Assembly (NCBI GenBank): GCA_030655755.1
Contig: JAUSOQ010000038.1
Span: 5,451-69,450 of the forward strand
Direction: 5' to 3'
DNA: 64,000 nt
Source: Coriobacteriia bacterium
GTDB taxonomy: Bacteria > Actinomycetota > Coriobacteriia > Anaerosomatales > Anaerosomataceae
How positions within the stretch are numbered: the stretch's first letter is position 1; every line of letters starts with the position of its first letter. The notes under the pieces were generated by a model that was given only the letters and a program-made list of their open reading frames with translations, made no database searches and was not told the origin of the DNA. A program made the position numbers and the translations under genes. Shown here one piece after another: positions 5,660-52,813 of the stretch.

Positions 5660-6999
5660 CTCTGTCCGCCGAGCAGGCCCGCGAACTCGCACGGCGCACT
5701 GTTTCTCTGACACAAGCCGACGCCGCCGAGGCCCTCGTCTCGAGCGAAGACGGCGCCCTCACCCGCTTCGCCGACAACCGCATACACCAGAACGTCGCCG
5801 AAAACGACACGAGTGTCTCGGTGCGCGCGGTCATCGGGAAGTGCACGGGAGTCGCGTCCACCAATCGCCTCGATGATGGATCGCTCGCAGCGTGTTGCGA
5901 GCGCGCCGTAGCCGCCGCCCGCATGGCGCCCGAGGACCCCGACTTCCCGGGCCTCCCCGCTCCGGTGGCCGTCACGACGCCCGACCGCGTGCATCCGTCG
6001 GTCAGCGCGTTTAACGCCGAGGCTCGCGCCCATGCTGCCGCCGCGATCATCGAACAGTCGGCCGAGCGTGGACTCACTGCCGCAGGCACCGTCAGCGCCA
6101 CCGAATACACCGTCGCGGTCGCCAACTCCGAGGGTGTGGACGTGGGCATGAGCGTCACCACCGTTCGCTCCACGGTGCTCTCCATGAGCCCCAAGGGCGG
6201 CTCCGGTTGGGCCTCACACCTCTCGGGCACCGCGGATGACTTCGCACCCGAAGCGCTCGGTGATGAAGCGGTGCTGCTCGCCATGCGCTCCGAGGGTGCG
6301 ATCGCGCTCGACCCGGGCGTCTACACCGTCGTACTCGCACCGGAGGCAGTCTCAGACATCCTCGACTTCCTCGGCTATCTTGGCTTCGGCGCGAAATCGT
6401 ATGCCGAGAAAAGCTCGTTCCTCTCGGGGAATATCGGCGAGCAGCTGCTGTCCCCTTTCATCTCCATCACCGATGACGCAACGTGTGACGAAACGCTTGG
6501 CCTCACCTTCGACTTCGAGGGTATGCCCAAGCTGAGAACGCCTCTCGTGGAGGCAGGGGTCGCATGCGAACCGGTCACGGACTCGTACTGGGCGTCGAAG
6601 TTGGGGATGCGCAACAGCGGCCACGCGCTGCCCGCGCCGAACTCCTACGGCCCGATGACGATGAACCTTCAGATCGCGGCAGGTGACGCCCGTATCGAGG
6701 ACATGATCGGTGCCGTCAAGCACGGCGTGTATGTCACGCGCTTCCACTATGTCAACGTCGAGGACCCCATTCGTGCCGTCCTCACCGGGATGACCCGCGA
6801 CGGCACCTTCATGATCGAGAACGGCCGGCTCGCCATGCCCGTCAAGAACCTGCGCTTCACGCAAAGCGCGGTCGAAGCACTGAACGCGGTCGAAGCGGTG
6901 ACCAGGAAGCGAGTGCTCATCGGGCCCGATGAGGGCGGAGCGAACCTCGCACCCGCACTGCTGCTTTCGAAGTGGGAGTTCACCGGCCAGACACGTTGA
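5656..6999 (+). CDS. pmbA: PmbA/TldE-family protein (TldD partner)
   Basis: ATGA start/stop overlap with tldD. TldD/PmbA-family sequence without the HExxxH motif, as expected for the PmbA partner. Confidence 0.85.
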   Translation: MTLSAEQARELARRTVSLTQADAAEALVSSEDGALTRFADNRIHQNVAENDTSVSVRAVIGKCTGVASTNRLDDGSLAACCERAVAAARMAPEDPDFPGLPAPVAVTTPDRVHPSVSAFNAEARAHAAAAIIEQSAERGLTAAGTVSATEYTVAVANSEGVDVGMSVTTVRSTVLSMSPKGGSGWASHLSGTADDFAPEALGDEAVLLAMRSEGAIALDPGVYTVVLAPEAVSDILDFLGYLGFGAKSYAEKSSFLSGNIGEQLLSPFISITDDATCDETLGLTFDFEGMPKLRTPLVEAGVACEPVTDSYWASKLGMRNSGHALPAPNSYGPMTMNLQIAAGDARIEDMIGAVKHGVYVTRFHYVNVEDPIRAVLTGMTRDGTFMIENGRLAMPVKNLRFTQSAVEALNAVEAVTRKRVLIGPDEGGANLAPALLLSKWEFTGQTR

Positions 7000-7192
7000 T
7001 CACACCAACGGCAGACATACGAGAACCCCAGCACTCTTATCGCGCCGGGGCTCTCATGCTTGCTCCCCGGTTCCGCGGCGGGAGGGGCGCCCACCGCGAA
7101 GCCGCATCGCATGTCAGGTCTGAGTTTTATCAGCCCCGACATGTCAGTTATCGGTTCCCCGGCTGCCAGACTTTAGGGGTTGAGACGCACGA

Positions 7193-7834
7193 TCAGCGCT
7201 CGCCGGCGGCTTCTTGAGCGGCGATGATGTCCTTCACCTTCATGAGCCGCGTCAGATTGCCACGCTCGGCCTCGTCGAGCTTCATCTGAATGTCTTTGAC
7301 GGTCTCATGGATAGACGGGATGAGCACGTACTCCAGCGCATTGACGCGTCGGCGCGTGCGCTCGATCTCGGCGGCCAGGAGCTCGATCGCCTTCTCGCGC
7401 TCGGCCAGCTCGAGCATGCGGGGAGCGACTGCCGCCAGGCGCGCGAGTGCTTCGTCGAGCACGACCGGCAGTGTCGAGAAGCTGTAGCCGCCAGGCTCGG
7501 CGAGCTCAAGCTGCTCGAAGATCGGCACGTGCACGCTCATGACGCTCTTCTCGCTCGTGTCCAGCAGCTCGATCGGAGCTCCCGCGAGCAGCGCCTGCGT
7601 GATCGCGGCGCGGCCTGCCTCAGCACGCGCCACCGCGAACAACCCATAGGCCGCTTTGAGCTCAGCCTCGACCTCAGCACGCAGCTTGCGGTTCGCCGAG
7701 ATGCGCGCGATGAACTCCTTGAGAAGCTCATCGAACTTGTCCTTGAGAAGCTTGTGTCCACGCTTCGCCACGTCACCGCGACGCTTCAGCTTCAGTAGCT
7801 CCATGCGGTTGGGGTTCACGCACATCTTCGCCAT
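7193..7834 (-). CDS. atpD: V/A-type ATP synthase subunit D
   Basis: N-terminus NPNRMELLKLKRRGDVAKRGHKLLKDKFDELLKEF is typical of subunit D. It is the last gene of the ATPase operon. Confidence 0.93.
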   Translation of the reverse strand: MAKMCVNPNRMELLKLKRRGDVAKRGHKLLKDKFDELLKEFIARISANRKLRAEVEAELKAAYGLFAVARAEAGRAAITQALLAGAPIELLDTSEKSVMSVHVPIFEQLELAEPGGYSFSTLPVVLDEALARLAAVAPRMLELAEREKAIELLAAEIERTRRRVNALEYVLIPSIHETVKDIQMKLDEAERGNLTRLMKVKDIIAAQEAAGER

Positions 7835-7838
7835 GCCA

Positions 7839-8033
7839 TCAGCCTCCCAGTCGCACGAGGAGCAGCCATACGATCAGCACGGCGACCGCTACCGCATTCA
7901 CGATGCGGAGCGCGATCACGCCGCGACTCGACTTCCCGCCAAGCTTGCGGGCGGCCTGCGCGCTCAGCAGCTGCACGACCACCAGCACGGCAAGCAGCGC
8001 GAAGATAAGTATTATCAGGGCCGTGTTGGTCAC
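7839..8033 (-). CDS. Small two-TM membrane protein (64 aa) inserted between atpB and atpD
   Basis: GTG start overlaps the atpB stop (GTGA). The stop lies 4 nt before the atpD ATG, and its last codons supply the GGGAGG Shine-Dalgarno for atpD. Two hydrophobic helices and G/C-rich third positions. Confidence 0.55.
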
Positions 8034-13185: not shown

Positions 13186-13692
13186 TCACCCCATGTACAT
13201 GTTGCGTAGCGAGAACAGCATCAGAATAGTGGCGATGAGCGAGAATACGGCGTAGGTCTCGACGAGCGCCGGGAAGATCAGCGCCTTACCCGAGTCCTCG
13301 CTGCGACGCGCGATCATGCCGGCGGCGCCAACGGCTGTCATGCCCTGGTAGATCGCGGTCACCAGGCACAGAACGGCGACCGGCAGGCATGATAGAAAGA
13401 TCTTGAAGCCAAGCTCACCCGGAATAGTGGGAGCCGTTTCCTGCAGCAGGATCTCAAAGAACTGCAGCACCAGGATGGCGGTGATCAGCCCGTAGATGCC
13501 CTGCGTACCCGGCATAGCGGCGAGTGGGAGAACCCGTCCGAACTTCTCGGAGTCCTCGGTCACGATACCCGACGCCGTGTTGGAGATCGTCGTGATACCG
13601 ATGGCCGAGCCGATCCCTCCTCCGATGACAGCGAACCCCGCGCCCATAAGCGCCCACGTCATGCCCGACATACCCCAAAAGACCTCGTTCAC
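13186..13692 (-). CDS. atpK: V/A-type ATP synthase proteolipid subunit K
   Basis: 168-aa, Gly/Ala-rich four-helix proteolipid. GTGA overlap with the atpI stop. Confidence 0.9.
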   Translation of the reverse strand: MNEVFWGMSGMTWALMGAGFAVIGGGIGSAIGITTISNTASGIVTEDSEKFGRVLPLAAMPGTQGIYGLITAILVLQFFEILLQETAPTIPGELGFKIFLSCLPVAVLCLVTAIYQGMTAVGAAGMIARRSEDSGKALIFPALVETYAVFSLIATILMLFSLRNMYMG

Positions 13693-15830
13693 GTTGTCTT
13701 GCCTCCTTCCTGCGACCCTACTCGAGGGTGCAGTACGACCGACTTCGTCTTAGGACCCAGCGGCGCGTAATTGCGGCCGCCCCCTTCGTAGAACTTGCTG
13801 AAGAACTCCACGAACTGCAGACGCGTGGGATGCACGAACGCGCCGAGCAGGTTGATGGCCAAGTTGATGACGTGCAGGATAAGCACGACGAGCACCGCGA
13901 ACACGAGACCGACGACCGGTCCCATCAGCTCCATCACGATGAAGCCGAGCTGGTTGGCGACCTGTCCCACGAGCATACCCGCAAGGCCGAGTGCCGCAAG
14001 TCGCGTGTAGGAAAGGAAGTCCGAGATGAGCCCCGACATCCCATACGTGTCGTAAGCGCCGAGGAGCAAGGCAAGCACCGCCTTGCGACCGGTCTTGGAG
14101 ACGAACATAGAGGCCGCGGTCAACCCGAGGAAGACCTGCGAGACGATGGAAGGCCCGCCGAGCGCAGCCGCGGCGAAGAAGGCCACCGCCGAGATGATCC
14201 ACGCCCACCCAAGCGCCTTGTCCCACGCCGGCGCTTCGACCTTCGAGGGAACCTCGAGCACCCGGCCCTTCAGCAGCAACGTCAGACCGAGGCCCCCGAT
14301 GATGAACGCCGACATCGTACCCGTGAGCAACGCGCCCGCCGCGATAGCCGCAAGCAGCACGATCGTCGAGATCTCACCCGCGACGGCGTCACGCCAGTCG
14401 CCTACCTTGATCTGCATGACAGCGCGCGTGACGATGCCGACCAGGATGTGCACCACGCCGAGTGCGATGCTGATCACCAGGAACAGCATGATGTCCTCAA
14501 GCGGGTCGAAGAGCTTGAACGAGAGCAGGAACGACGGAACCAGATCCGTGCTGACCGCGAAGTAGGAGCCCGTCACGACACCCAGAAGCACCGACGCAGC
14601 GCCTCCATAGGTCAGCAGCTCCATGAATTTTTTCACACCGGGACCAACGTCCAACTTCCGCTTGATGAGCTGAGCGATGATCATGAGCGCGATGCCGTAG
14701 CCGACATCCGCTAGCGCCATCCCGAAGAAGATGAAGAAGAAGCCTGCCATCAGCGGCGTGGGATCGACCTCATGGTATTGCGGGCGTCCGTAGAGATCAG
14801 TGAGCACCTCGAACGGCCGGAGCCACTTCGGATTGTCGAGCTCGATCGGTGGGTGATCGTCGGGATCCGGCTCCTCGAAGGTGAGATCTACATCGAAACG
14901 CACCGGCTCCAGCGCGGCCTCAAGCTTGGCACGTCTGGCAGCCATGACCCATCCCGTTATGACTATGGTGCGCTCGGTCGAACCGAAACGCTCGCGGACG
15001 AGCAATATGTCGCGGGCCGATACAAGCGCCTCGGCCAATCCCACAGAGTGCTCATGGCGTTCCTCAGAGAGCTCCTTCGCCCGCTCGAGCATGCGCTGTT
15101 CTTCGGCATCGAGTTCGACCAGACGCTCCTCGGCGATTGAGATCTCCTCGGCGGGATAGTCAGAAAGCTCGGGGAAACCGACCTCGGTGAAGTTGGTGAG
15201 ATGCAGAGTCGAACGTACTTCGTCGACCTGGTCTCTGTGCGCCATGACCACCCAGGCGGACCTACTGCCTACCGGCCCGAGTTCCTCGACCGAGACCTCG
15301 ACGACAGCCTCGCGCAGACGGGCACGGATGGCCTCGCCCTCGGAGGCTGGGACGGTTCCGGTGAACAGGACAACGTGCTCGCTCCCGCGCCACTGGCTGA
15401 TCTGCAGGTGCAGCGGCTCCCACGGACGCAGGTCCGTGATGAGCGCACGCAAACGCTCGCAGTGACGCTCGATGGAGGCTAGACGGTCGGAAAGGAACAC
15501 GCATTCGCGGTAGAGGTCAGAAAACTCCTCGTCCGGCGCAAGAGCGTAGAACTCATCCTCGCTCATGTGGAACTTCTCGGAGATGAAGGAGGCGAACGGC
15601 GCGTCGGACGTGTGATACCTGCCGAGGAACTCCGCGACGAACTGCGCATCCGCGATCTGCTCGTCGAGTGTGGCGATGCGAGCCTCGACATCTGCCGAGA
15701 CGGGTGCCGGAAGTTCGTTCGCGTCCTGCGCGATATCGAGTACGCCAGCCTTCCTCAGGCTGTCGACGAGTGCCTCTGACGCCAGAGCGTGCGAAATCGC
15801 CGTGACTTTGAGCATGCGCGCTACGGCCAC
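13689..15830 (-). CDS. atpI: V/A-type ATP synthase subunit I (stator a-subunit)
   Basis: 713 aa with a soluble N-terminal half and a polytopic C-terminal half ending in RLQFVEFFSKFYEGGG, characteristic of subunit I. Confidence 0.9.
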   Translation of the reverse strand: MAVARMLKVTAISHALASEALVDSLRKAGVLDIAQDANELPAPVSADVEARIATLDEQIADAQFVAEFLGRYHTSDAPFASFISEKFHMSEDEFYALAPDEEFSDLYRECVFLSDRLASIERHCERLRALITDLRPWEPLHLQISQWRGSEHVVLFTGTVPASEGEAIRARLREAVVEVSVEELGPVGSRSAWVVMAHRDQVDEVRSTLHLTNFTEVGFPELSDYPAEEISIAEERLVELDAEEQRMLERAKELSEERHEHSVGLAEALVSARDILLVRERFGSTERTIVITGWVMAARRAKLEAALEPVRFDVDLTFEEPDPDDHPPIELDNPKWLRPFEVLTDLYGRPQYHEVDPTPLMAGFFFIFFGMALADVGYGIALMIIAQLIKRKLDVGPGVKKFMELLTYGGAASVLLGVVTGSYFAVSTDLVPSFLLSFKLFDPLEDIMLFLVISIALGVVHILVGIVTRAVMQIKVGDWRDAVAGEISTIVLLAAIAAGALLTGTMSAFIIGGLGLTLLLKGRVLEVPSKVEAPAWDKALGWAWIISAVAFFAAAALGGPSIVSQVFLGLTAASMFVSKTGRKAVLALLLGAYDTYGMSGLISDFLSYTRLAALGLAGMLVGQVANQLGFIVMELMGPVVGLVFAVLVVLILHVINLAINLLGAFVHPTRLQFVEFFSKFYEGGGRNYAPLGPKTKSVVLHPRVGSQEGGKTT

Positions 15831-16138: not shown

Positions 16139-16303
16139 GCCCCACCTTCGAGTTTCCACCTCTGAACACATCGTGAAATTCTATCACTTACGAAAACCCG
16201 CGCAAGGGGTTTGTCCACATAAAGAAATCGACCTGCCCACAGGAGGGTGACTCCGAGATCGAACGGCCCGTGTCTTGCTTGCTTTACTAGTATAGTAGTC
16301 GCG

Positions 16304-17566
16304 ATGAGTGAGCCGGTGTATCTGAGGAAGTCTGAGCGACAAGCCATGCCCAAAACAGCGTCGAAATACCGGACGACCGCCGGGGAACTAGCTGCTGCCA
16401 CGCGAAAGAAGCGCCTACGCATCTTCCTCGCAGCGTGCGGCGTGCTCGCAGTTGTCGCCACGGCGATACTCAGCCTCTCCGCGCTGGAGCCGGGCCTTTT
16501 CGCCGGAAGAGACGCTCAGCCGGTGATGGCCACACCAACAAGCGTGCCGACCGTCACCGTCGAACCGACCGCCTCGGTAGAGCCGACCGCACCGCCCGAG
16601 CCCTCCCGTCCCGCGACCATCACCGTTGCCGCGGTGGGCGACATGATCTTCGATCGGCGGGTGAAGACGCTCATCGCCTCGACCAATGGCGCCGAGCCCC
16701 TCTCCGACGTGGCCGCTCAGCTTGCCGTCGCCGACATCGCCGTCGGCAACCTCGAGAGTCCACTTTCGACCGGCGGGATCCGCAACACCGCCAAAGACGT
16801 CACGTTCCGCGGCGACCCGCGCGGCGCCGATGGGCTCGCGCTCGCGGGCTTCGACTTCCTCTCCCTCGCCAACAACCACGTGCTCGACTACGGTCCCGAC
16901 GCGCTCGCCGACACGGTCGCACTTCTCGACGGACTGAGCATCGGCCATGCCGGTGCAGGCGCGAACCGCGACGAGGCATGGACACCCGCTGTGGTCGAGA
17001 CGGACGGCGCCACGGTCGCCTTCCTGTCGTTCTCTCACATCCTGCCCGCAGGCTTCGTGGCGACCGACTCCAGGGCGGGCCTCGCCCAGGGCCGCAACAA
17101 CATGGACGCAGTGGAAGACGCGATCCGCTCGGCCAAAGAGGAGTACGACTACGTCATCGTGAGTTTCCACTGGGGCGTCGAGTACGTTGATGACTGCAAT
17201 GGCGATCAGGTGAAAGATGCGCACCGGGCGGTGGACGCCGGCGCCGACATGGTGATGAGCCATCATCCGCATGTGATCCAGGCCGTCGAGTACTACAACA
17301 ATCGCCTGATCGCCTACTCACTGGGTGACTTTGTCTTCGACCACTACTCGCGCAAAACAGGCGAGGCATTCATACTTGATGCGTCACTCGGCCCTGCCGG
17401 TGTGAGCGACGTGAAGATCACCCCGGTCTACCTCGACAGCAACGGTAAGCCCGAATACGTGCACGGCAAGGAGGCGACGGCGATCCTGGAACGGCTACAT
17501 GACATCTCGGCAAAGCGCGGGACCACCGTCCCCGTCGACGGGGACACCGCGGCGGTGACGCCGTGA
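16304..17566 (+). CDS. CapA-family (PGA_cap metallophosphatase-like) membrane-anchored protein
   Basis: TM anchor followed by AAVGDMIFDRR, GNLESPLS, SLANNHVLDYG, SFHWGVEY and HHPHVIQ motifs typical of the CapA family. The start is uncertain (16247/16304/later). Confidence 0.85.
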   Translation: MSEPVYLRKSERQAMPKTASKYRTTAGELAAATRKKRLRIFLAACGVLAVVATAILSLSALEPGLFAGRDAQPVMATPTSVPTVTVEPTASVEPTAPPEPSRPATITVAAVGDMIFDRRVKTLIASTNGAEPLSDVAAQLAVADIAVGNLESPLSTGGIRNTAKDVTFRGDPRGADGLALAGFDFLSLANNHVLDYGPDALADTVALLDGLSIGHAGAGANRDEAWTPAVVETDGATVAFLSFSHILPAGFVATDSRAGLAQGRNNMDAVEDAIRSAKEEYDYVIVSFHWGVEYVDDCNGDQVKDAHRAVDAGADMVMSHHPHVIQAVEYYNNRLIAYSLGDFVFDHYSRKTGEAFILDASLGPAGVSDVKITPVYLDSNGKPEYVHGKEATAILERLHDISAKRGTTVPVDGDTAAVTP

Positions 17567-18513
17567 GGCCAGCCGCCTCGAACAATCGCCCGCCCCGTCA
17601 CGTACGCTCGCAGCCGCCCACGCGCTCGCCTCAGACTCCCCGCACGACTGCTTCCGGACTGCGACCGGTACGCGATACCGGGCTCAACGTGCGAAGCAGC
17701 CGCGGCCGCAAGCGCCGTCGGAGGCCCTCCCCGTACTCGCTGCTCATCGCACTCTGCTTCATCACGATCGTCGCGATGTTGTTCGTAGTCGGGCGCGCCG
17801 GCTCCAATGATGGCGCGCCCCTTCCCCCGGCCTCGGCTACGCCGGAGGTCGTTGTTGCGGCAACCGAACCGGAGCGTGACCCTACCCCGCGCTTCGCCGA
17901 ATATCAAGAACTCACTCTGCGACTCCCGATCGACCCGGAAGACATCACCGCGATCGCCTTCCACCAGGCGTCCGGCAGCAACGCATTGCACATGACATCG
18001 CTCGCCCCCGATGCGGACATGGAACTCGCCGCCCGGCTCAAAGCGGTACCCCCGCTCCAGGACGCGCCGACAACAGATTCCGACGTTCCCGCCCAGCCCG
18101 ACATCTGGTACGGCTGCGTACTGCGGTTGTGGCGCAGTAACCGCACCGGTGCACCGGACACGGCGGTCGACTGCGGCGCAGACGCAGGCTCGGCGGTCTT
18201 CTCGCCCATCTCGGGCACCGTCGTCAGGGTGAAGGCCTACAAGCTCTACGAGAAGTACAACGACTACGAGATCCACATCCGACCTGATGGCCGAGACGAC
18301 ATCGATCTCGTGCTGCTGCACGTCGACGACGTGCTGATCGCCGAGGGAGACCGCGTGACGGCCGGAGTGACGCGGATCGCGTCGGTGCGCAAGATGTCGG
18401 ACCGGGTCGACTTGCAGCTCGCCGGCTACACCAGCAACGGCGGCGACCACGTGCACGTGCAGCTGAACACGGCCGAGGCGGACCCGTCGCTTTCAGGAGC
18501 CGACGGCTCCTAG
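17563..18513 (+). CDS. Membrane-anchored LytM/M23-like domain protein, possibly catalytically degenerate
   Basis: GTGA overlap with the upstream gene. Arg/Pro-rich N-terminus and one TM. The C-terminus reads SPISGTVVRV...GDHVHVQL (HxH retained), but the usual HxxxD is replaced by DCGAD. Confidence 0.6.
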   Translation: MRPAASNNRPPRHVRSQPPTRSPQTPRTTASGLRPVRDTGLNVRSSRGRKRRRRPSPYSLLIALCFITIVAMLFVVGRAGSNDGAPLPPASATPEVVVAATEPERDPTPRFAEYQELTLRLPIDPEDITAIAFHQASGSNALHMTSLAPDADMELAARLKAVPPLQDAPTTDSDVPAQPDIWYGCVLRLWRSNRTGAPDTAVDCGADAGSAVFSPISGTVVRVKAYKLYEKYNDYEIHIRPDGRDDIDLVLLHVDDVLIAEGDRVTAGVTRIASVRKMSDRVDLQLAGYTSNGGDHVHVQLNTAEADPSLSGADGS

Positions 18514-20471: not shown

Positions 20472-20563
20472 GGTTTCGCAATCATCCTGCCGATGTATGA
20501 TGCGTAGTAGTGTGTGCATCATCACATGGTGATGCCGAACGGCAGCAAGGCAGAGAGAGACGC

Positions 20564-21376
20564 ATGATGCGGATAGCCAAGACCAGGTTCCGCCTGGGAC
20601 GCGTACGGTCAGGCATCCTCGCCGTGCTTGTCCTATGCCTTCTCGCATCAGTGAGTCCTCTCGCATACGCCGTCGTCGCCTCGGCAGGTCCTACCACGAC
20701 TCTTTCCTCGTACTACGCAGGGGCAACGGATGTCACCTACGAGTTCGGGACCTTTGCTATGGAGGCCGGCGAGACCCTTTTTATGATCGAGTTCACATTC
20801 ACGGGGGACGCAAACGTGACGGCGGCAACACTGCTCGAGCCCGCGGGGACACTCTCGGTGTCAGGACAGACCGTGAGTATCGCAGTGTCGCCCACGCTGC
20901 CGCCTAGCACCGAGTTCGTTGTCCGTATCGGTGGCGTCACCAACCCGACGACGCCGGGTGACTATCCGCTGAACGGCCCTTATACGAGGATCTCTTTCTC
21001 CTACAAGAACGCGAAACTCCAAACCAAGACGGACAGCATACTCATAGCCCACTACACCATCACCGAAGCGCCGTTCCTCACCATGACGATTCCCACCGCT
21101 GACATCGACTTTGGAACCGTGGAGCCCGACGCAGCAGTGCCCTATGGCCCCGGCACGATCCAGGTGGACGTCACGTCCAACTACGGCTACACACTGACCC
21201 GCGAGACGACAGGCGATGTCGCGAGCCTGGGTCTCGTGATCACTGGCGACGCTGCCGGATCGAAGAATGCGGGCACGTCGTCCTACTACGACGCCGTCAC
21301 CATCCTTCCTGATTGGAACACCCCTGCCGGGGTTCCCCTGGTCGCCACGGTGACATACACCGCAGCCATCCCGTAG
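20564..21376 (+). CDS. Secreted two-domain beta-rich protein; C-terminal domain is paralogous to the next gene
   Basis: ATG at 20564. Signal peptide RFRLGRVRSGILAVLVLCLLASVSPLAYA. C-terminal LTMTIPTADIDFGTVEPD...VDVTSNYGYTLTRETTGD...ILPDWNTPAG...VTYTAAIP aligns with the 21584 gene. Confidence 0.7.
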   Translation: MMRIAKTRFRLGRVRSGILAVLVLCLLASVSPLAYAVVASAGPTTTLSSYYAGATDVTYEFGTFAMEAGETLFMIEFTFTGDANVTAATLLEPAGTLSVSGQTVSIAVSPTLPPSTEFVVRIGGVTNPTTPGDYPLNGPYTRISFSYKNAKLQTKTDSILIAHYTITEAPFLTMTIPTADIDFGTVEPDAAVPYGPGTIQVDVTSNYGYTLTRETTGDVASLGLVITGDAAGSKNAGTSSYYDAVTILPDWNTPAGVPLVATVTYTAAIP

Positions 21377-21403
21377 GAACCCCGTACACAGAGCCGCAGC
21401 CTC

Positions 21404-21421
21404 ACCGTTCATCCGTTCAAC
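21404..21421 (+). promoter_or_regulatory. Tandem overlapping ACCGTTC-type boxes (ACCGTTCATC / TCCGTTCAAC)
   Basis: Read directly and verified against the frame of ORF 20861..21424. Lies in the intergenic region upstream of the 21584 gene. Confidence 0.4.
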
Positions 21422-21583
21422 CATCCTTGTGTGCCTTCTGTCACACTATTCTGCCGTACGGCAAGAGCGTATTCATTTCCATACAGCTCCGCCCGATAGA
21501 GGAATCAGAACGAGCCGGCGCGAGTTCTACGAAATCAAATCAAGTCTCGATACGCAGTCTGTCTCAAGGAGGAGAAGAGAGAA

Positions 21584-22045
21584 ATGAAGAAGACACTTCT
21601 GATAGGGATCGTCGCAGCGGCACTGGTCATGGGAATGGTCGCGTACGCGACAGCAGCGACAACCACCGCAACAGTCAGCGCAACGGTCAACCCGAAGCTC
21701 GAGATCACGACGAATGCCACGAGCATCACCTTCGATGCCGTGGATCCCGGTGCCACGAACACCAAGTCCACGACGTTCACAGTCAAGTCGAACAACAGGT
21801 TCACCGTCGCCAGAAGCGAAGTGGTGGGAGACTACCTGCATCCCGTCGTAGCCAATGATTCCTACAACTACAGCGACTTCTCGACCGACATGCATGTTTC
21901 CTATGCGGATCTCGACCAGGGCACCGGCGCCTACGCCAAGGGCGGAGCCGTTGAGGTCAAGGACACCCTCACGATTGCACCCACCTGGGATGTCGCCTCT
22001 GGTGCCTACTCCGGTGCGTATCTGTACACCGTGACCCAGATCTAA
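21584..22045 (+). CDS. Secreted small beta-rich protein (paralog of the C-terminal domain of the 20564 gene)
   Basis: AAGGAGGAG Shine-Dalgarno. Signal peptide MKKTLLIGIVAAALVMGMVAYATA. LEITTNATSITFDAVDPGATNTKSTTFTVKSNNRFTVARSEVVGD...TIAPTWDVASG...LYTVTQI. Followed by a strong terminator. Confidence 0.75.
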   Translation: MKKTLLIGIVAAALVMGMVAYATAATTTATVSATVNPKLEITTNATSITFDAVDPGATNTKSTTFTVKSNNRFTVARSEVVGDYLHPVVANDSYNYSDFSTDMHVSYADLDQGTGAYAKGGAVEVKDTLTIAPTWDVASGAYSGAYLYTVTQI

Positions 22046-22089
22046 CGCCGCGCCGGCAGGTGAGTGTCTGACTCACCCAGGGTCTCGGA

Positions 22090-22122
22090 GAACCCGCCTG
22101 GAATCCAGGCGGGTTCTTTCTT
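22090..22122 (+). terminator. Intrinsic terminator after the 21584 gene
   Basis: GAACCCGCCTGGAATCCAGGCGGGTTC (11-13 bp stem) followed by TTTCTT. Confidence 0.8.
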
Positions 22123-22129
22123 GCGTCCC

Positions 22130-22164
22130 AAATGACCGTTCGTCCTCTACATGAACGGTCATTT
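22130..22164. promoter_or_regulatory. 12-bp inverted repeat AAATGACCGTTC-N11-GAACGGTCATTT containing a perfect ACCGTTCGTC box (22135-22144)
   Basis: Read directly; coordinates verified against the frame of ORF 21969..22178. Could be a protein operator or an RNA hairpin. Confidence 0.5.
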
Positions 22165-22216
22165 CCCTGGATTCCCAAGCGTATCTAGCTAGCCATTCAT
22201 CCGTTAGTAGTCCGCA

Positions 22217-22264
22217 ACCGTTCATTCGTCACACACTCATACCGTTCGTCTACCGATAAACGGT
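22217..22264. promoter_or_regulatory. Cluster of ACCGTTC boxes: ACCGTTCATT (22217-22226,+), perfect ACCGTTCGTC (22241-22250,+), ACCGTTTATC (22255-22264,-)
   Basis: Read directly; coordinates verified codon by codon against ORF 22197..22529. Lies 40-90 nt upstream of the 22303 gene start. Confidence 0.5.
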
Positions 22265-22302
22265 ATAGCAGACGAGAACAACGGCAACGGATGGGGGTGT
22301 GA

Positions 22303-22590
22303 GTGATGAAGCGGACGATCGTAGCGGTCCTGACCGCAGCGGTGCTCATCATCTCCCTGCTCCCCGCCGTGGCAGCCGCAGACAGCGGAACCGTCAATGT
22401 GAGCGTCCACGTGGGCGAGCGCATCGTGCTCACCCCAACAGCAGACGGAGTCACCGTACAGGCCAACATCCCGTGGCAGCTGGTCGTCGATACGACCGAG
22501 GGCGCACTCACCGTGACCGGTGAGCCCACAAGCGGCTACCGGGTGGAGCTTCCCGAGACAGCCACAGCGTACTGGGTGGTCACCGACTAA
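22303..22590 (+). CDS. Secreted small protein (95 aa) with W-x-L-like motifs
   Basis: GTG 22303 / ATG 22306 after GGGGGTG. Signal peptide MKRTIVAVLTAAVLIISLLPAVAAA. Mature part is beta-rich and contains PWQL and a terminal YWVV. Confidence 0.65.
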   Translation: MMKRTIVAVLTAAVLIISLLPAVAAADSGTVNVSVHVGERIVLTPTADGVTVQANIPWQLVVDTTEGALTVTGEPTSGYRVELPETATAYWVVTD

Positions 22591-22638
22591 GAAGAGATAT
22601 CCTCACCGTTCGGCGCGGTAGAAGGAGAGCCTGCTGAG

Positions 22639-23691
22639 CTACTCGGCAGGCTCTTCGGATTCAGCGGACACGTCTACATCAGCCGGGGCGACCTTCTCCG
22701 CACGTCGCACTCTGCGGTGCGCAGCCCTGACAGCCTGCTTCCACGACAGATACATCAAGATGAGCGCCACAACAACGACCACGACGATCGCCAACCACAG
22801 CGGCGCGATCCACACGGTCCGGTCCTTGACCACCTGATCTTGGATCGTCGACCCGGGAGAAGCTCCCTCGCGGGGGTACTCCACCGTGAGCCTGGCCGTG
22901 AAACGACCCAACGTGGGGATGCCCTCGGCCACGCCGGAGCGTTCGAGATTGGTTCCCGCATACACTACCGTCTCCGACGCCACCGCGCTGCCCCATACCT
23001 CGTTCTCATCACCGTCGAGCAGCGCCAGTCTGGCTGTGACCATCTTGTCGATGTTGCCTTCGTTGCGGATCAGGAAGACCCACGGCATCTCATTACCCAG
23101 AATGGGGCTGCGTACACTGAAGGGCCGCACATCCATGCGCTCGACAAGTTCACCCTGTACGCGGATACGTATACGCGCACCCAGCCTACCCGCCACCTTC
23201 GCAGATGACCCCTCGGAGGTGTCATCGGGCGTGAGCATCTCGAAGAAGAGCAGCATCTGGTGGTCTCCGGGGGCCACTTCCTCCGGAACCGTGAAGGAGA
23301 ACTTCACCGGCGTTCGCTCACCAGGCGCAAGCGTTATCAACGGCGTGTTGCCCAGCGACTGCGTCGAGCTGGGGATTTGAATACTGATCCACGCCGTAGG
23401 ATTGGACGCGAAACCTTCCGAGGTCCTATTAGGAACCTCGTAGGTGACGCCGCCCTTCTCGTCGATGACCTGGACGCCGGAGTAGACGAGGACATCGAGT
23501 GTCTCATCGCCGTCGTTCATCACCACGAGTTCGCCCTCACCGCTCCCCCCTGGAGCGACTGAGAAGTCGAACGACCCGGTGGAAAGCCCGAGTGTCCTCT
23601 CGGCCACCGCAGTGCCGGGAAGCAGGGCGACCGCCAACATGCAGGCAAGCGCGATGACGGTCAATCGGCGGCGGAACGTCACGCCGCGCAT
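22639..23691 (-). CDS. Cell-surface protein resembling DUF916/DUF3324 (WxL-interacting, CscA-like): signal peptide, two beta domains, C-terminal TM anchor
   Basis: Signal peptide MRGVTFRRRLTVIALACMLAVALLPGTAVA. FDFSVAPGGSGEGELVVMNDGDETLDVLVY...GGVTYEV...ITLAPGERTPVKFSFTVPEEVAPGDH. C-terminal WLAIVVVVVVALILMYL followed by a basic tail. Family assignment is from memory of the domain patterns. Confidence 0.75.
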   Translation of the reverse strand: MRGVTFRRRLTVIALACMLAVALLPGTAVAERTLGLSTGSFDFSVAPGGSGEGELVVMNDGDETLDVLVYSGVQVIDEKGGVTYEVPNRTSEGFASNPTAWISIQIPSSTQSLGNTPLITLAPGERTPVKFSFTVPEEVAPGDHQMLLFFEMLTPDDTSEGSSAKVAGRLGARIRIRVQGELVERMDVRPFSVRSPILGNEMPWVFLIRNEGNIDKMVTARLALLDGDENEVWGSAVASETVVYAGTNLERSGVAEGIPTLGRFTARLTVEYPREGASPGSTIQDQVVKDRTVWIAPLWLAIVVVVVVALILMYLSWKQAVRAAHRRVRRAEKVAPADVDVSAESEEPAE

Positions 23692-24434
23692 CAGATACCC
23701 ACCGCGCCGCGGAACTCTTTGACCTGACGCCGTGCCACGGGGATCTGGGTCTCATCCCGGTCCACAACGACCACGACATAGGAGCCATCGACGCGCAGGA
23801 TCTCCTTCACGCGGTTCAGGTTGATCATGTAGCTGCGATGCACGCGCTGGAAGACGTCTTTGGAGAGCTTCTCTTCCAGATCGCTCAGCGTGAGGTCCAC
23901 GAGGTACTGGTTCTCGTAGGTGTGCACGTAGGTGGACTTGTTCTTCGCTGAGATGTAGATGATGTCCTCGATATTGAGCAGCACCGTGCGGCCACCTTTG
24001 CGGACGGCGAGTTTGCGAAAGTCGCCTTCACCCGCCAGACCGGGAGCAGCGACAGCCGGACGCACACGCACCAGACTGCGGACTCGGGCGGACAGCTCCA
24101 TGAGATTGAACGGCTTGGTGACGTACTGCTGCACGCCTTGTTTGAAGGCGAGTATCTTGGCGAGATCTTGAGTCTTGGCTGTGAGCATGATCACGGGGAT
24201 GTCGGCGGTCGCCGGGTTGTTGCGGATCTCCATGAGCGCCATCCAGCCGTCGACGCGCGGCATCATGATGTCCAGCAAGATGACGTCGACCGGCTCCCGA
24301 TCGAGCACCTCAAGGGCTTCGGCGCCATCACCCGCACTGACGACATGCATGCCGTCGGCTTCAAACCCCATGCGGATCATCTCTTGGATGGACACGTCGT
24401 CGTCGACGACCAGCACGTTGATAGGATCCGACAT
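23691..24434 (-). CDS. Response regulator with REC + LytTR DNA-binding domain (no adjacent kinase)
   Basis: ATG 24434 after GAGGAGG. VLVVDDD...DVILLDIMMP receiver and a C-terminal LytTR pattern (IIYISAKNKSTYVHTYENQYLVDLTLSDLEEKL...FQRVHRSYMINLNRV). Its stop codon shares 1 nt with the start codon of the 22639 gene. Confidence 0.9.
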   Translation of the reverse strand: MSDPINVLVVDDDVSIQEMIRMGFEADGMHVVSAGDGAEALEVLDREPVDVILLDIMMPRVDGWMALMEIRNNPATADIPVIMLTAKTQDLAKILAFKQGVQQYVTKPFNLMELSARVRSLVRVRPAVAAPGLAGEGDFRKLAVRKGGRTVLLNIEDIIYISAKNKSTYVHTYENQYLVDLTLSDLEEKLSKDVFQRVHRSYMINLNRVKEILRVDGSYVVVVVDRDETQIPVARRQVKEFRGAVGI

Positions 24435-24551
24435 TGACCCTCCTCGGCCTGCAGGCCTGTCTGCCACAGGCGAACGACCATTCATCGCTTGGCGGCGCCG
24501 AACATCAGGACGTTTCGCTTGCAGAGTATACCGCACGTCTGACCCGACGCA

Positions 24552-50711: not shown

Positions 50712-52127
50712 TCAGTGGTACGCAGGAAGCGATACGACGAAGCGGGATCCGCCGAAAGGTGAGTCATCCACACGGATCGTTCCGTCCATCAACTCCACAA
50801 GCCGCGCGCATATGGAAAGACCGAGGCCGGAACCACCCGTCTCGGCGCAACGCGATGGATCGAGACGCACGAAGCGTTCGAAGATGCGTTCGCGCTGCTC
50901 CACAGGAACTCCCGATCCAGAGTCATCCACCAGCAGCGACCAGCGGTCGTCCTCGCATGAAGACGAGATCCGCACCTGCCCGCCCTCCGGCGTGTAGGCG
51001 ATCGCGTTGGCCGTCAGTGCGCTCGCTATCTGAAGCAGTCGAGATTCGTCGCCGAGAGGGACCTGGCCATCGCAGGAGAGGTCATCCACTAAAAACTCGA
51101 TGTCCCGGCATCCGGCGACCGCTTCGTGTCGACTCCTGAGCGCCTCGGCAAGCGCTCCTGTATCGACAACGACCTCATCGAGTTCCAACCGGCCGGAGTC
51201 TATGTCAGCCAGAACGAGCAGGGTCTGGGTGAGTTCGGCCAGACGGCCCGCTTCGTCGCGGATCCCGGTGAGGAAGCGATGGCGAACGTCCGGCTCCGTC
51301 GCTGTCCCGTCGAGCATCGCGCCCGCGAAGCCGCTGATGGTGGTGATCGGGGTGCGCAGTTCGTGGGACACGTTGCCGACGAACTCCTTCTGAGCGCGGT
51401 ATACATCAGAGACTCGCGTGGACATGCGATTGAACGAGCGTGCAAGCGAAGCTACTTCATCCTCGCCCTCGACATCGACCTGTCGGCCCCATTCGCCGCG
51501 CGCAACCGCCTCAGCGCCCTGCTCCAGACGCAGAACCCGACCAGAGAGGCGCCGTGCGACCAACCCACCGGTCAGCCACGCCACTACTGTTGCGATCAAC
51601 GCCGAGATACCGAGAAGCACGAGGACACCCGCTTGCGCGCCGTTGATCTCGCGCACGGGTTGGAGCGCCAGGAGATACCCCCCTTGCTCGCCCTCGACCG
51701 GCGCGGCGACGACGACCGCACGCCCACCGCCCAACGCGGCGACAGCCGTGCGGACCCCGCGTTCGTCGGCTTCGCCGAGCACACCAAGGTCATAGCTTTT
51801 GGCAGTGTCCTTCTCCGAGGAGAGCAGGACCACGCCTTCATCATCGGTGACGACGAGTCTGGCGCCGATCAAGCCGGCCTGCACACGGAACAGGCGCACC
51901 CGTAGTTCTCCTGTTGCGCCGGAGTCACCGCTGCCGAGCTGTCCACCTGCTGAGAGCCCCGTGGCAAGCGCGGAGACCTGGCGGCCGAGTTCGGTGGTGC
52001 GATAGTCGACGGTGTAGCGAAGCCATGCCGCATAGAAGACGACGAAGACGACGGCGACCGAGATACCCGCGACGGCTAACATGCTCAGCCGTGTTCGAGT
52101 GACGAGCGAAGACGAGCGTGTCGACAT
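50712..52127 (-). CDS. Sensor histidine kinase (2 TM, HAMP, HisKA, HATPase)
   Basis: H-box FVGNVSHELRTPIT, N and G boxes (ALTANAIAYTPEGG, DDSGSGVP, GGSGLGLSI). Confidence 0.92.
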   Translation of the reverse strand: MSTRSSSLVTRTRLSMLAVAGISVAVVFVVFYAAWLRYTVDYRTTELGRQVSALATGLSAGGQLGSGDSGATGELRVRLFRVQAGLIGARLVVTDDEGVVLLSSEKDTAKSYDLGVLGEADERGVRTAVAALGGGRAVVVAAPVEGEQGGYLLALQPVREINGAQAGVLVLLGISALIATVVAWLTGGLVARRLSGRVLRLEQGAEAVARGEWGRQVDVEGEDEVASLARSFNRMSTRVSDVYRAQKEFVGNVSHELRTPITTISGFAGAMLDGTATEPDVRHRFLTGIRDEAGRLAELTQTLLVLADIDSGRLELDEVVVDTGALAEALRSRHEAVAGCRDIEFLVDDLSCDGQVPLGDESRLLQIASALTANAIAYTPEGGQVRISSSCEDDRWSLLVDDSGSGVPVEQRERIFERFVRLDPSRCAETGGSGLGLSICARLVELMDGTIRVDDSPFGGSRFVVSLPAYH

Positions 52128-52813
52128 CAGCCACCGTCCTTGCGGACCCGATATCCCACGCCTCTGACCGTCTCGATGAAGCGGGGAGCAGCAGCGTCAT
52201 CGCCCAGCTTCTCGCGCAGATGTCGGATGTGCACGTCGACACCACGCAGATCGACGAAGTCCGAGAAGCCCCATACCGCTTCGAGCAGGCGCTCTCTTGA
52301 GAAGACGACACCGGGGTCGCGCAGCATGGTGACCAGAAGGTCGAACTCCTTCGCTGTGAGAACGACCTCCTGCCCATCGACCTTTGTCTCGCGCCTTGCG
52401 GTGTCGAGCCACAATCCGCCATGGACATGCACGTGTTCGGCGCCGTCCGCCGCCGCAGTACGACGCATGACCGCCCGCACGCGGGCCACGAGCTCGGGCG
52501 GGCTGAACGGTTTGGTGACGTAGTCGTCTGCCCCGTCCTCGAGCAGCGAGATCTTCTCTAGCTCATCTGCGCGAGCAGTGAGCATGATGATGGGCACGGT
52601 GGAGCGCTTCCGGATCGACCGGCACACCTCGGCGCCGTCGATGCCCGGAAGCATGATGTCGAGGATGACGATATCGTACGGTTCGGCCAACACCGCCTCG
52701 AGCGCGGCAGCGCCGTCAGCAGCCTGCCCGACCTCGAAGCCGGCGGCTGACAGATAGACCGACACGAGGTCGCGGATCTTCGCCTCATCATCGACGACGA
52801 GCACTTTGGGCAT
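52127..52813 (-). CDS. OmpR-family response regulator
   Basis: KVLVVDDE...IVILDIMLPGIDG receiver and a winged-helix C-terminus RFIETVRGVGYRV. 1-nt overlap with the kinase gene. Confidence 0.95.
   Translation of the reverse strand: MPKVLVVDDEAKIRDLVSVYLSAAGFEVGQAADGAAALEAVLAEPYDIVILDIMLPGIDGAEVCRSIRKRSTVPIIMLTARADELEKISLLEDGADDYVTKPFSPPELVARVRAVMRRTAAADGAEHVHVHGGLWLDTARRETKVDGQEVVLTAKEFDLLVTMLRDPGVVFSRERLLEAVWGFSDFVDLRGVDVHIRHLREKLGDDAAAPRFIETVRGVGYRVRKDGG

Follow-up and report, generated by a model that had tools for sequence, protein, structure and literature searches.

The window analysed here is a stretch of 64,000 nucleotides from a metagenome-assembled genome (MAG) labelled 'Coriobacteriia bacterium' (contig JAUSOQ010000038.1), and all coordinates are positions in it unless another contig is named. 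It contained a cluster of five open reading frames (ORFs), designated A, B, C, D and RR (response regulator), which were all confirmed and whose coordinates are those of the gene calls in the public contig record (locus tags Q7J82_035xx). The cluster is probably a vertically inherited surface-appendage locus of Anaerosomatales-type Coriobacteriia, with a build like that of WxL clusters and Pam pili and with a different, unannotated subunit domain. The five genes were the following.

20564-21376, plus strand: gene A, 270 aa, with a signal peptide, a variable N-terminal domain, a linker and a C-terminal B-type domain (about 21050-21367); the 'large partner'.
21584-22045, plus strand: gene B, 153 aa, with a signal peptide, an N-terminal strand (TATVSATV) and a single B-type domain; the 'small partner'.
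22303-22590, plus strand: gene C, 95 aa, with a signal peptide and a mini-protein of about 69 aa.
22639-23691, minus strand: gene D, 350 aa, with a signal peptide, two immunoglobulin-like (Ig-like) beta-sandwich domains, a C-terminal transmembrane (TM) helix and a basic tail.
23691-24434, minus strand: gene RR, a REC-LytTR response regulator of 247 aa.

The N-termini of A, B, C and D each showed a basic n-region, a hydrophobic stretch and an AxA site when read from the sequence by eye, and the signal peptides that a first-pass annotation of this DNA had assigned to A, B, C and D are thereby borne out. The same annotation had the D and RR genes adjoining by 1 nt, and the two indeed overlap by 1 nt, the RR stop codon TGA sharing letters with the D start codon ATG as TGATG. 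It had also treated the five adjacent genes as one coherent unit; the same gene order recurs in relatives, so the association is not a matter of chance.

By profile comparison and by its predicted fold, D is a homologue of the WxL-interacting proteins (WxLIPs) with two Ig-like domains and a C-terminal membrane anchor. The Pfam model PF06030 (WxLIP_PGBD, DUF916) matched the D of the window at 20.6 bits (E 4.8e-4), below its gathering threshold of 27.3, and matched 18 of 23 D-family members (best E 3.2e-7), several of which bear a precomputed PF06030 assignment. The DUF3324 model of Pfam had no match in any of the 23, and a sequence search of the D profile against PDB chains returned nothing relevant. 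For direct comparison, real WxL and WxLIP genes were taken from plasmids (B. anthracis pXO1, B. thuringiensis, L. plantarum, E. mundtii, E. faecalis and Pontibacillus); they were fetched with a WxL-like consensus, which matched no PDB chain and scored 140 bits on the Pfam WxL model (PF13731). The hhalign comparison of the D family with six WxLIPs gave a probability of 97.8% and an E of 7.9e-13 over 267 aligned columns (reversed control 0.05), with query positions 35-314 aligned to template positions 49-335, from the conserved N-terminal F-D-F/L strand through both domains and into the TM helix.

AlphaFold2, run with the family alignment, modelled D (predicted local distance difference test, pLDDT, 80) with beta-sandwich domains at 34-153 and 166-296 and a long C-terminal helix at 298-333. 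Foldseek of this model against the PDB demonstrated top matches from E 7e-9 to 4e-6: CfaA (7e-9), RbmA (1.4e-8), 'WxLIP from Enterococcus faecium' (9i1y_A, 2.9e-8 over 277 columns) and 'WxLIP bound to long WxL' (9i25_C, 3.1e-8), followed by the chaperones FimC, DraB and CsuC. The definition of a WxL cluster (Hassan, Chaudhuri & Williamson 2023) includes a WxLIP with a DUF916/PGBD N-terminal domain, which the D family carries, and a second Ig-like domain (DUF3324/HBD) followed by a TM helix, which D carries according to the hhalign alignment, the AlphaFold2 model and Foldseek. The earlier reading of D as a protein resembling the DUF916 plus DUF3324 WxLIPs, with two beta domains, a TM segment and a basic tail, was therefore upheld by the Pfam DUF916 matches of the family, by hhalign over both domains and by the predicted structure.

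A domain of about 105 aa was common to B and the C-terminus of A, and C is a truncated version of it. A profile of this B-type domain, run against the whole 64 kb, matched B (E 6e-29), A (E 1.9e-28, residues about 162-267 of 270, window 21050-21367) and C (E 1e-5), with no other match in the window. The C family matched the B family in hhalign (probability 91%, E 9.3e-7) across the N-terminal half of that domain, from which the DFGxVDPG hairpin is missing in C; this indicates that A, B and C all derive from one domain; the conserved motifs of C are ANxPWxL and a C-terminal Y-x-(V/L)-V. The first-pass annotation had proposed a shared domain of about 105 residues for A and B, and its motifs are visible in our alignment A2; C, which it had treated apart, also belongs to the family.

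A word-indexed search with B alone found 2 proteins, and an alignment of locus-derived sequences followed by an exhaustive profile search was needed, which gave 912 representative clusters (50% identity), 301 of them at E <= 1e-10. The members fell into length classes of about 135-170, about 265 and 855-900 aa with the domain always C-terminal, and the ten sampled were all unnamed or 'hypothetical protein' entries from Actinobacteria MAGs. No Pfam or NCBIfam model scored above its curated threshold on A, B or C. TasA, camelysin and SCPU gave no profile match, and the only DUF4402 matches (0.06-0.08) were those of C and of 3 among the 146 homologues. Matches of B-type proteins to Arch_flagellin, BcfA, StfA, Wzz, ExtJ and JUQZ lay in the N-terminal hydrophobic segment and were dismissed as signal-peptide artefacts.

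The N-terminal domain of A matched DUF2808 weakly (0.044 in the A of the window; 11 homologues matched, best 2.9e-8). Orthologues of A ranged from 263 to 961 aa, and the giant forms contained FixG_C, Ig_VWA7, MG2, NPCBM_assoc or DUF7507 Ig-like modules before the C-terminal B-type domain, the Ig and MG2 modules being stalk-like. For B, the AlphaFold2 model (pLDDT 71, core 80-90) was an Ig-like sandwich. Its Foldseek matches were all weak (best E 5e-3) and included PapD-like domains and the chaperone-usher pilins FimF, CsuA/B and the pilin domain of PapG (template modelling scores 0.40-0.47); the B profile, searched by sequence against PDB chains, had no relevant match. Hydrophobic residues alternate strictly at the mature N-termini of B (TATVSATV) and C (TVNVSVHV), and this stretch was unpaired in the monomer model of B.

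The signal peptide of B (21584-21655; MK[KR]T[IL][LI]I..V.ALVFG.V.YA) had a mean pairwise identity of 61% across orthologues against 32% for the mature part (alignment A2), an excess that was not seen in C (39% against 43%) or D (33% against 47%). Possible reasons for this conservation are a dedicated peptidase, an anchor that is retained, or a constraint acting on the RNA.

Homologues of D found by word-indexed search numbered 48, and they came from environmental Coriobacteriia or 'Actinobacteria' MAGs and from the cultured Parvivirga hydrogeniphila (order Anaerosomatales). A scan for D with one genome per species gave 21 loci, and four further contigs were also compared. The gene order in nearly all 21 loci, as far as the contig reached, was ApbE, pyrK-like, gltD-like, RR, D, convergent C, B, A, DUF711 and ACT, and the four further contigs showed the same arrangement. 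Neighbourhood conservation had been proposed as a check on the cluster, and its genes were co-conserved in all 21 loci where the contigs reach. The invariant core consisted of RR, D and one B-type gene, while C was absent from some genomes and A ranged from absent to 961 aa.

Identity to the protein of the window was 75-91% for gltD-like, 73-93% for DUF711 and 69-95% for RR, compared with 43-77% for D, 32-67% for C, 30-52% for B and 26-48% for A, so that the surface proteins A-D diverge much faster than the flanking housekeeping genes. The fixed core-genome position together with the fast divergence of the exported products points to an old, vertically inherited locus and to no island. The GC content at the locus was slightly lower (0.60-0.61 against 0.63-0.65); a mobile island was nevertheless rejected, because the site between the gltD/pyrK-like and DUF711/ACT genes was constant in all genomes examined.

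In one orthologous locus (L035, HGW-Actinobacteria-7, PHET01000003.1) the D orthologue at 6855-7849 was broken into two ORFs of 190 and 141 aa, and a near-identical JGI contig (L034) had it intact at 344 aa. The split is either a frameshift (pseudogene) or an assembly error.

The first known system with which the cluster was compared is the WxL/Csc cluster. A canonical WxL cluster contains one WxLIP, a small WxL protein and a large WxL protein, and a strand of the WxLIP is predicted to complete the WxL sandwich (PMC10599100). The cluster in the window resembles this plan in that D matches WxLIPs over both domains and the anchor, one small partner (B) has the partner domain alone and one large partner (A) has variable N-terminal modules before the same domain, the genes are adjacent and all their products are secreted; insertion of a beta-strand from the WxLIP into its partner would be the mechanism proposed for both. 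It differs in the host, a high-GC actinomycete class of sediments and groundwater as opposed to gut Firmicutes, and in being a single-copy, core-genome locus coupled to a LytTR regulator. The truncated paralogue C stands in place of the small LPXTG protein, and a sortase substrate is lacking. Neither an LPXTG-type C-terminus nor a TLxTC sortase signature was found when the window ORFs were scanned for motifs, and no sortase was present among the Pfam-annotated gene calls within 10 kb on either side, in agreement with the first-pass annotation; the small LPXTG-anchored CscD of the Csc definition (Siezen 2006), which implies sortase dependence, thus has no counterpart here. Csc/WxL clusters had been taken as described for low-GC Firmicutes, but WxL and DUF916 do not occur strictly in these alone: unexplained 'DUF916 alone' proteins are already listed for some Actinobacteria and CPR, namely Actinomadura, Actinoplanes, Auritidibacter, TM7x and a Kazan bacterium (PMC10599100, Table S5).

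The partner domain itself was not detectably WxL. A, B and C had no PF13731 match at E <= 1, and PF13731 was not among the families matched by 146 B-family homologues (top families, E <= 1); the 140 bits of the WxL-like consensus on PF13731 served as the positive control. The B profile scored at most 3 bits in HMMER on 12 real WxL domains. In hhalign of the B family against WxL only the last strands aligned, with P 0.0028 when signal peptides were included and 0.03 (29 columns) when they were removed (reversed control 0.19); the lower value was rejected as proof of homology because the signal peptides drove it. The dual Trp-x-Leu motif was not found in A, B or C: A and B have S-N-x-x-(F/Y)-T-(V/L) at the site of motif 1 and Y-T-(V/A) at that of motif 2, and only C has a single PWQL. 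No two PF13731 proteins lie within four genes of the WxLIP, as a WxL cluster requires, and for want of a WxL domain the locus falls outside WxL-cluster membership. The first-pass statement that the small proteins do not obviously match the canonical WxL domain therefore stands, and the profile searches suggested with it assigned A-C to none of WxL, TasA, camelysin and SCPU.

Among small proteins annotated as 'WxL domain-containing', those of B. anthracis pXO1 (L023 3890-4495) and of a B. thuringiensis plasmid (L026 2878-3474) end in LTYS(I/V)VTGP. This pXO1-type ending has Tyr in place of the Trp of motif 2, and a literal WxL is accordingly not universal within the annotated family. The LTYS(I/V)V of these sequences resembles the T-Y-T-(V/I) of the B family, a likeness that is suggestive only.

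It is unlikely, in our assessment, that A, B and C are a highly diverged true WxL/Csc family that binds peptidoglycan non-covalently, with D only stabilising them at the wall and without a fibre. The homology of D to WxLIPs, the arrangement of small and large partners, the crystal complex of a WxLIP with a long WxL (9i25), the literal PWxL of C at the position of WxL motif 1, the Tyr for Trp in the Bacillus plasmid proteins and the alignment of the C-terminal strand motif of B (G-x-Y-x3-V-x-Y-T-V) with the region of the second WxL motif would all fit that explanation. Against it, PF13731 was matched by none of the 146 family members, the B profile hardly scored on real WxL domains, the alignment shrank to 29 columns once the signal peptides were removed, and the B-type domain has about 105 aa where WxL domains have 160-190.

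In its mechanism, the Pam pilus of the Candidate Phyla Radiation (CPR) may be nearer to the locus than Csc is. In Ca. Mycosynbacter amalyticus, cryo-electron microscopy showed Pam filaments of pilins with an N-terminal domain, a linker and a C-terminal domain, joined by donor-strand exchange; the system further includes the single-domain PamT, the FimC/PapD-like chaperones PamC and PamD with a C-terminal TM helix, and an RbmA-like anchor PamR, also with a TM helix (bioRxiv 10.64898/2026.03.03.709456). The authors stated that Pam pilins are CPR-only and mentioned neither DUF916 nor WxL. The locus in the window shares with this system Sec-exported subunits with truncated Ig-like C-terminal domains in a cell without an outer-membrane usher, a single-domain subunit beside subunits with two domains and a linker, and a two-domain FimC/PapD- or RbmA-like protein whose C-terminal TM helix anchors it in the membrane. 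The last of these was found in the D model by Foldseek, the Pam proteins being compared by description.

Weak sequence matches to the Pam models were also obtained. CPR_Pam_pilin_C (NF058581) matched 14 of the 146 B-family members at E <= 0.1 (best 1.2e-4, 23 bits against a cut-off of 55), the best E in the A3 set was 6.9e-5, and the B consensus matched at 4.9e-4 over profile positions 114-145 of 148, which are the last two strands. The PamT model was matched colinearly at 78-139 and 207-238 of 241, below threshold. The differences from Pam are that the subunits here are much smaller and have no cysteine pairs, that the similarity lies under every curated threshold, and that the lineage is outside the CPR.

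The recurrent, colinear matches to CPR_Pam_pilin_C and PamT, and a D with the traits of PamC/D and PamR (likeness to chaperone-usher chaperones and RbmA, and a C-terminal TM helix), could be read as a Pam-type pilus proper. On that view PamA/B/E and PamT would have their orthologues in A, B and C, and PamC/D or PamR theirs in D, the system being either taken over from the CPR or common to both lineages. This was judged quite improbable: every match was far under its curated cut-off, the D family had no Pam-related NCBIfam match, the Pam authors reported no homologues outside the CPR, A and B have no paired cysteines, and the conserved core-genome context of the locus shows no sign of transfer.

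Likeness to the chaperone-usher pili (Fim, Pap, Csu, CFA/I) was seen in the fold of D, which resembles that of the periplasmic chaperones, in the B model with its resemblance to the pilin subunits FimF, CsuA/B and the PapG pilin domain, in the two-domain A, which follows the adhesin logic of FimH and PapG, and in the alternating-hydrophobic N-terminal strand of B, which is like an N-terminal extension (Nte). Coriobacteriia are monoderm. In contrast to the chaperone-usher systems there is neither usher nor outer membrane, the chaperone-like protein is membrane-anchored, and there was no significant sequence similarity; no usher-like gene was found within 10 kb on either side, where all neighbours were housekeeping genes.

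The regulator RR contained a Response_reg domain (PF00072, 1.1e-27) and a LytTR domain (PF04397, 3.3e-27), matched BtsR over its full length (1.3e-28) and had the phospho-acceptor Asp and the DD, Thr and Lys-Pro residues, so the REC-LytTR assignment of the first-pass annotation was confirmed for both domains. LytTR sites are paired boxes of about 9 bp with a spacer of about 12 bp. Candidate sites of this kind and other elements in the intergenic regions were as follows.

20488-20495, plus strand: TGCCGATG, before the palindrome upstream of A, read from the sequence.
20533-20544, plus strand: palindrome TGCCGAACGGCA upstream of A, with related elements also in front of B and C.
21405-21442, plus strand: LytTR-type boxes CCGTTCATC (21405), CCGTTCAAC (21413) and CCTTCTGTC (21434) upstream of B, the last two 21 nt apart from start to start.
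21452-21463, plus strand: conserved palindrome TGCCGTACGGCA, downstream of the boxes and upstream of B.
22089-22117, plus strand: terminator-like hairpin downstream of B, with a perfect stem of 14 nt and then TTTCTT.
22130-22164, plus strand: inverted repeat AAATGACCGTTC / GAACGGTCATTT, which holds a box CCGTTCGTC at 22136.
22217-22269, plus strand: promoter region of C, with boxes ACCGTTCATTCGTC and CCGTTCGTC (22242-22250) about 20 nt apart, TACCGATAAACGGTA and a -10-like TATAGC.
22626-22654, no strand assigned: hairpin between the convergent C and D, its right arm overlapping the last codons of D; probably a bidirectional terminator.
24478-24530, minus strand: leader of the RR-D operon, with a -10-like GGTATACT (TATACT, 24530-24525) and a reverse-oriented box GATGAATGG (24486-24478).

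A sigma-70 promoter and terminator scanner found none of either, and the hairpins and -10-like elements came from a repeat search and comparative footprinting. The predicted boxes upstream of B and of C are paired 20-21 nt apart from start to start, as at LytTR target promoters, and the pairs are conserved in orthologous regions. The box module upstream of B was kept in loci L001, L003-L006, L011, L013, L015-L017 and L019, and the promoter region of C left a footprint in 14 orthologous loci. The elements of the RR-D leader were kept in nearly all loci, with the box about 45 nt downstream of GGTATACT; three loci have a perfect box directly next to the -10. The degenerate box CCGYTYRTC occurred at 2.77 per kb in the intergenic zone of the cluster and at 0.20 per kb elsewhere (17 loci), a 14-fold difference, and 6 of the 11 copies of ACCGTTC in the window lay within 21404-22611. 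The exact 10-mer ACCGTTCGTC was present twice in the 257-nt spacer between B and C. The dedicated transcriptional control suggested by the first-pass annotation gains support from the conserved boxes upstream of B, C and the RR-D operon.

The consensus of the LytTR regulator AlgR is 5'-CCGTTCGTC-3', with CCGTTTGTC as a known variant (PMC4064291). RR resembles regulators of the AlgR/AgrA type in its REC plus LytTR architecture, in predicted boxes identical to the AlgR consensus and to the variants CCGTTTGTC and CCGTTCATC, and in their paired spacing of about 20-21 nt; AlgR also controls surface appendages (type IV pili). It differs in being co-transcribed with a structural gene and in having no adjacent cognate kinase gene. 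No histidine kinase was present among the Pfam-annotated gene calls within 10 kb of RR on either side, and the only kinase detected in the window by motif scan (HAMP, HisKA and HATPase_c; 494 aa; 50715-52196, minus strand) lies 26 kb away. That kinase is not of the LytS/AgrC type, which usually pairs with LytTR regulators.

That RR is a mere neighbour controlling other genes, and A-D an envelope-structural or nutrient-binding set without strand complementation, is highly improbable, because RR and D are adjacent in every locus and overlap here by 1 nt at stop and start, and the boxes are clustered, conserved and spaced as LytTR sites. In favour of that reading, the conservation of RR (69-95%) far exceeds that of A-D, as would be expected of a housekeeping regulator, no kinase gene adjoins it, and CCGTTCGTC is not significantly over-represented in the whole window (3 copies where 1.6 are expected); what is significant is how the copies cluster and are conserved.

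A second set of conserved elements was seen near the boxes. It consists of (G/C)CCGAT(A/G) motifs and the palindromes TGCCGAACGGCA, TGCCGTACGGCA and TACCGATAAACGGTA, at 20488-20495, 20533-20544, 21452-21463, 21492-21499 and 22251-22265, and may act as a second operator or form 5' RNA stems. The B gene has a long conserved leader (about 150 nt). About 95 nt upstream of the regulator gene lies a promoter-like element, GTGCGGTATACT / GGTACAAT (24525-24530, minus strand), which was kept in nearly all loci.

On the reading of the cluster as a surface-appendage locus, the locus thus lies between the WxL and the Pam descriptions, as a WxLIP homologue with a fold like PamC/D/R and with partners like minimal pilins. 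By analogy with these systems, D would stay in the membrane after Sec export and would insert a beta-strand into the pilin-like domain of A and B and so bind it, as proposed for the WxLIP with WxL and for PamC/D with the pilin. That the subunits may chain is suggested by the linker strand of A and by the N-terminal strands of B and C with their alternating hydrophobic residues; whether they do so by donor-strand exchange into a short fibre or form a static WxL-type complex appears about evenly balanced. In the case of a fibre, the variable A would be the distal adhesin that gives binding specificity, and C an adaptor or terminator. RR would be phosphorylated by a kinase encoded elsewhere, bind the paired boxes, switch on B and C and autoregulate RR-D. 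The first-pass annotation had suggested a divergent or undescribed surface fibre or adhesion complex; to this are added a WxLIP-like anchor and an undescribed domain, the fibre itself being a proposal. The structure prediction recommended with it was carried out on D and B as single proteins, and D appeared WxLIP- and chaperone-like and B weakly pilin-like.

Several points weigh against this reading. The locus is known here from genes, by sequence comparison and predicted structures alone, where filaments have been seen for Pam; A, B and C stayed under the curated thresholds of the Pfam WxL model and of all NCBIfam models; the Foldseek matches of the B model, which was built with the signal peptide, were weak throughout; and all matches to Pam models were at 14-23 bits against curated cut-offs of 55 and 240 bits. 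There is one membrane-anchored protein where Pam has three (PamC, PamD and PamR). Strand insertion and polymerisation are argued by analogy, and the predicted binding of RR to the boxes is drawn from family knowledge and conservation alone.

A more specific form of the fibre proposal can be put forward tentatively, namely an actinobacterial, usher-less donor-strand-exchange pilus in which D, as the single membrane-anchored chaperone and anchor of WxLIP type, would polymerise the minimal pilin B, with the modular adhesin A at the tip and the half-domain C as cap or anchor. If this were true, the WxL clusters of Firmicutes, the Pam pili of the CPR and the chaperone-usher pili of Gram-negatives, at present regarded as unrelated, would be joined in one ancient monoderm 'chaperone-only' fibre family, and the 'orphan DUF916' proteins of Actinobacteria and CPR would be accounted for.

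WxL clusters have been regarded as a speciality of gut Firmicutes and Pam was reported in 2026 as exclusive to the CPR, and here a WxLIP homologue occurs in Actinomycetota. The fast-evolving pilin-like partner family, of about 900 clusters at 50% identity, is new and undescribed and merits a Pfam or NCBIfam model. The comparison suggests that bacteria without an outer membrane generally build surface structures with membrane-anchored 'chaperones' of two Ig domains that act by strand complementation. For experiments the locus offers a simple core, consisting of RR, D and one B-type gene; an orthologue of D is carried by the cultured Parvivirga hydrogeniphila, and there is a predicted regulon with an AlgR-like operator.

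Genes for V-type ATPase subunits (V_ATPase_I, ATP-synt_C) were found at about 13689-15815, some 7 kb from the cluster, and likewise at 1-2275 in L034/L035. In the CPR, ATP synthase genes are reported to adjoin the pam operons (bioRxiv 10.64898/2026.03.03.709456); the proximity of the V-type ATPase genes here is probably a coincidence of the conserved core-genome neighbourhood. Envelope genes also flank the cluster (window 16247-18513; L031 3746-4972), namely PGA_cap (CapA-like), two M23 peptidases, one of them with a PcsB-like coiled coil, and DUF951, and these neighbours fit an envelope-related neighbourhood.

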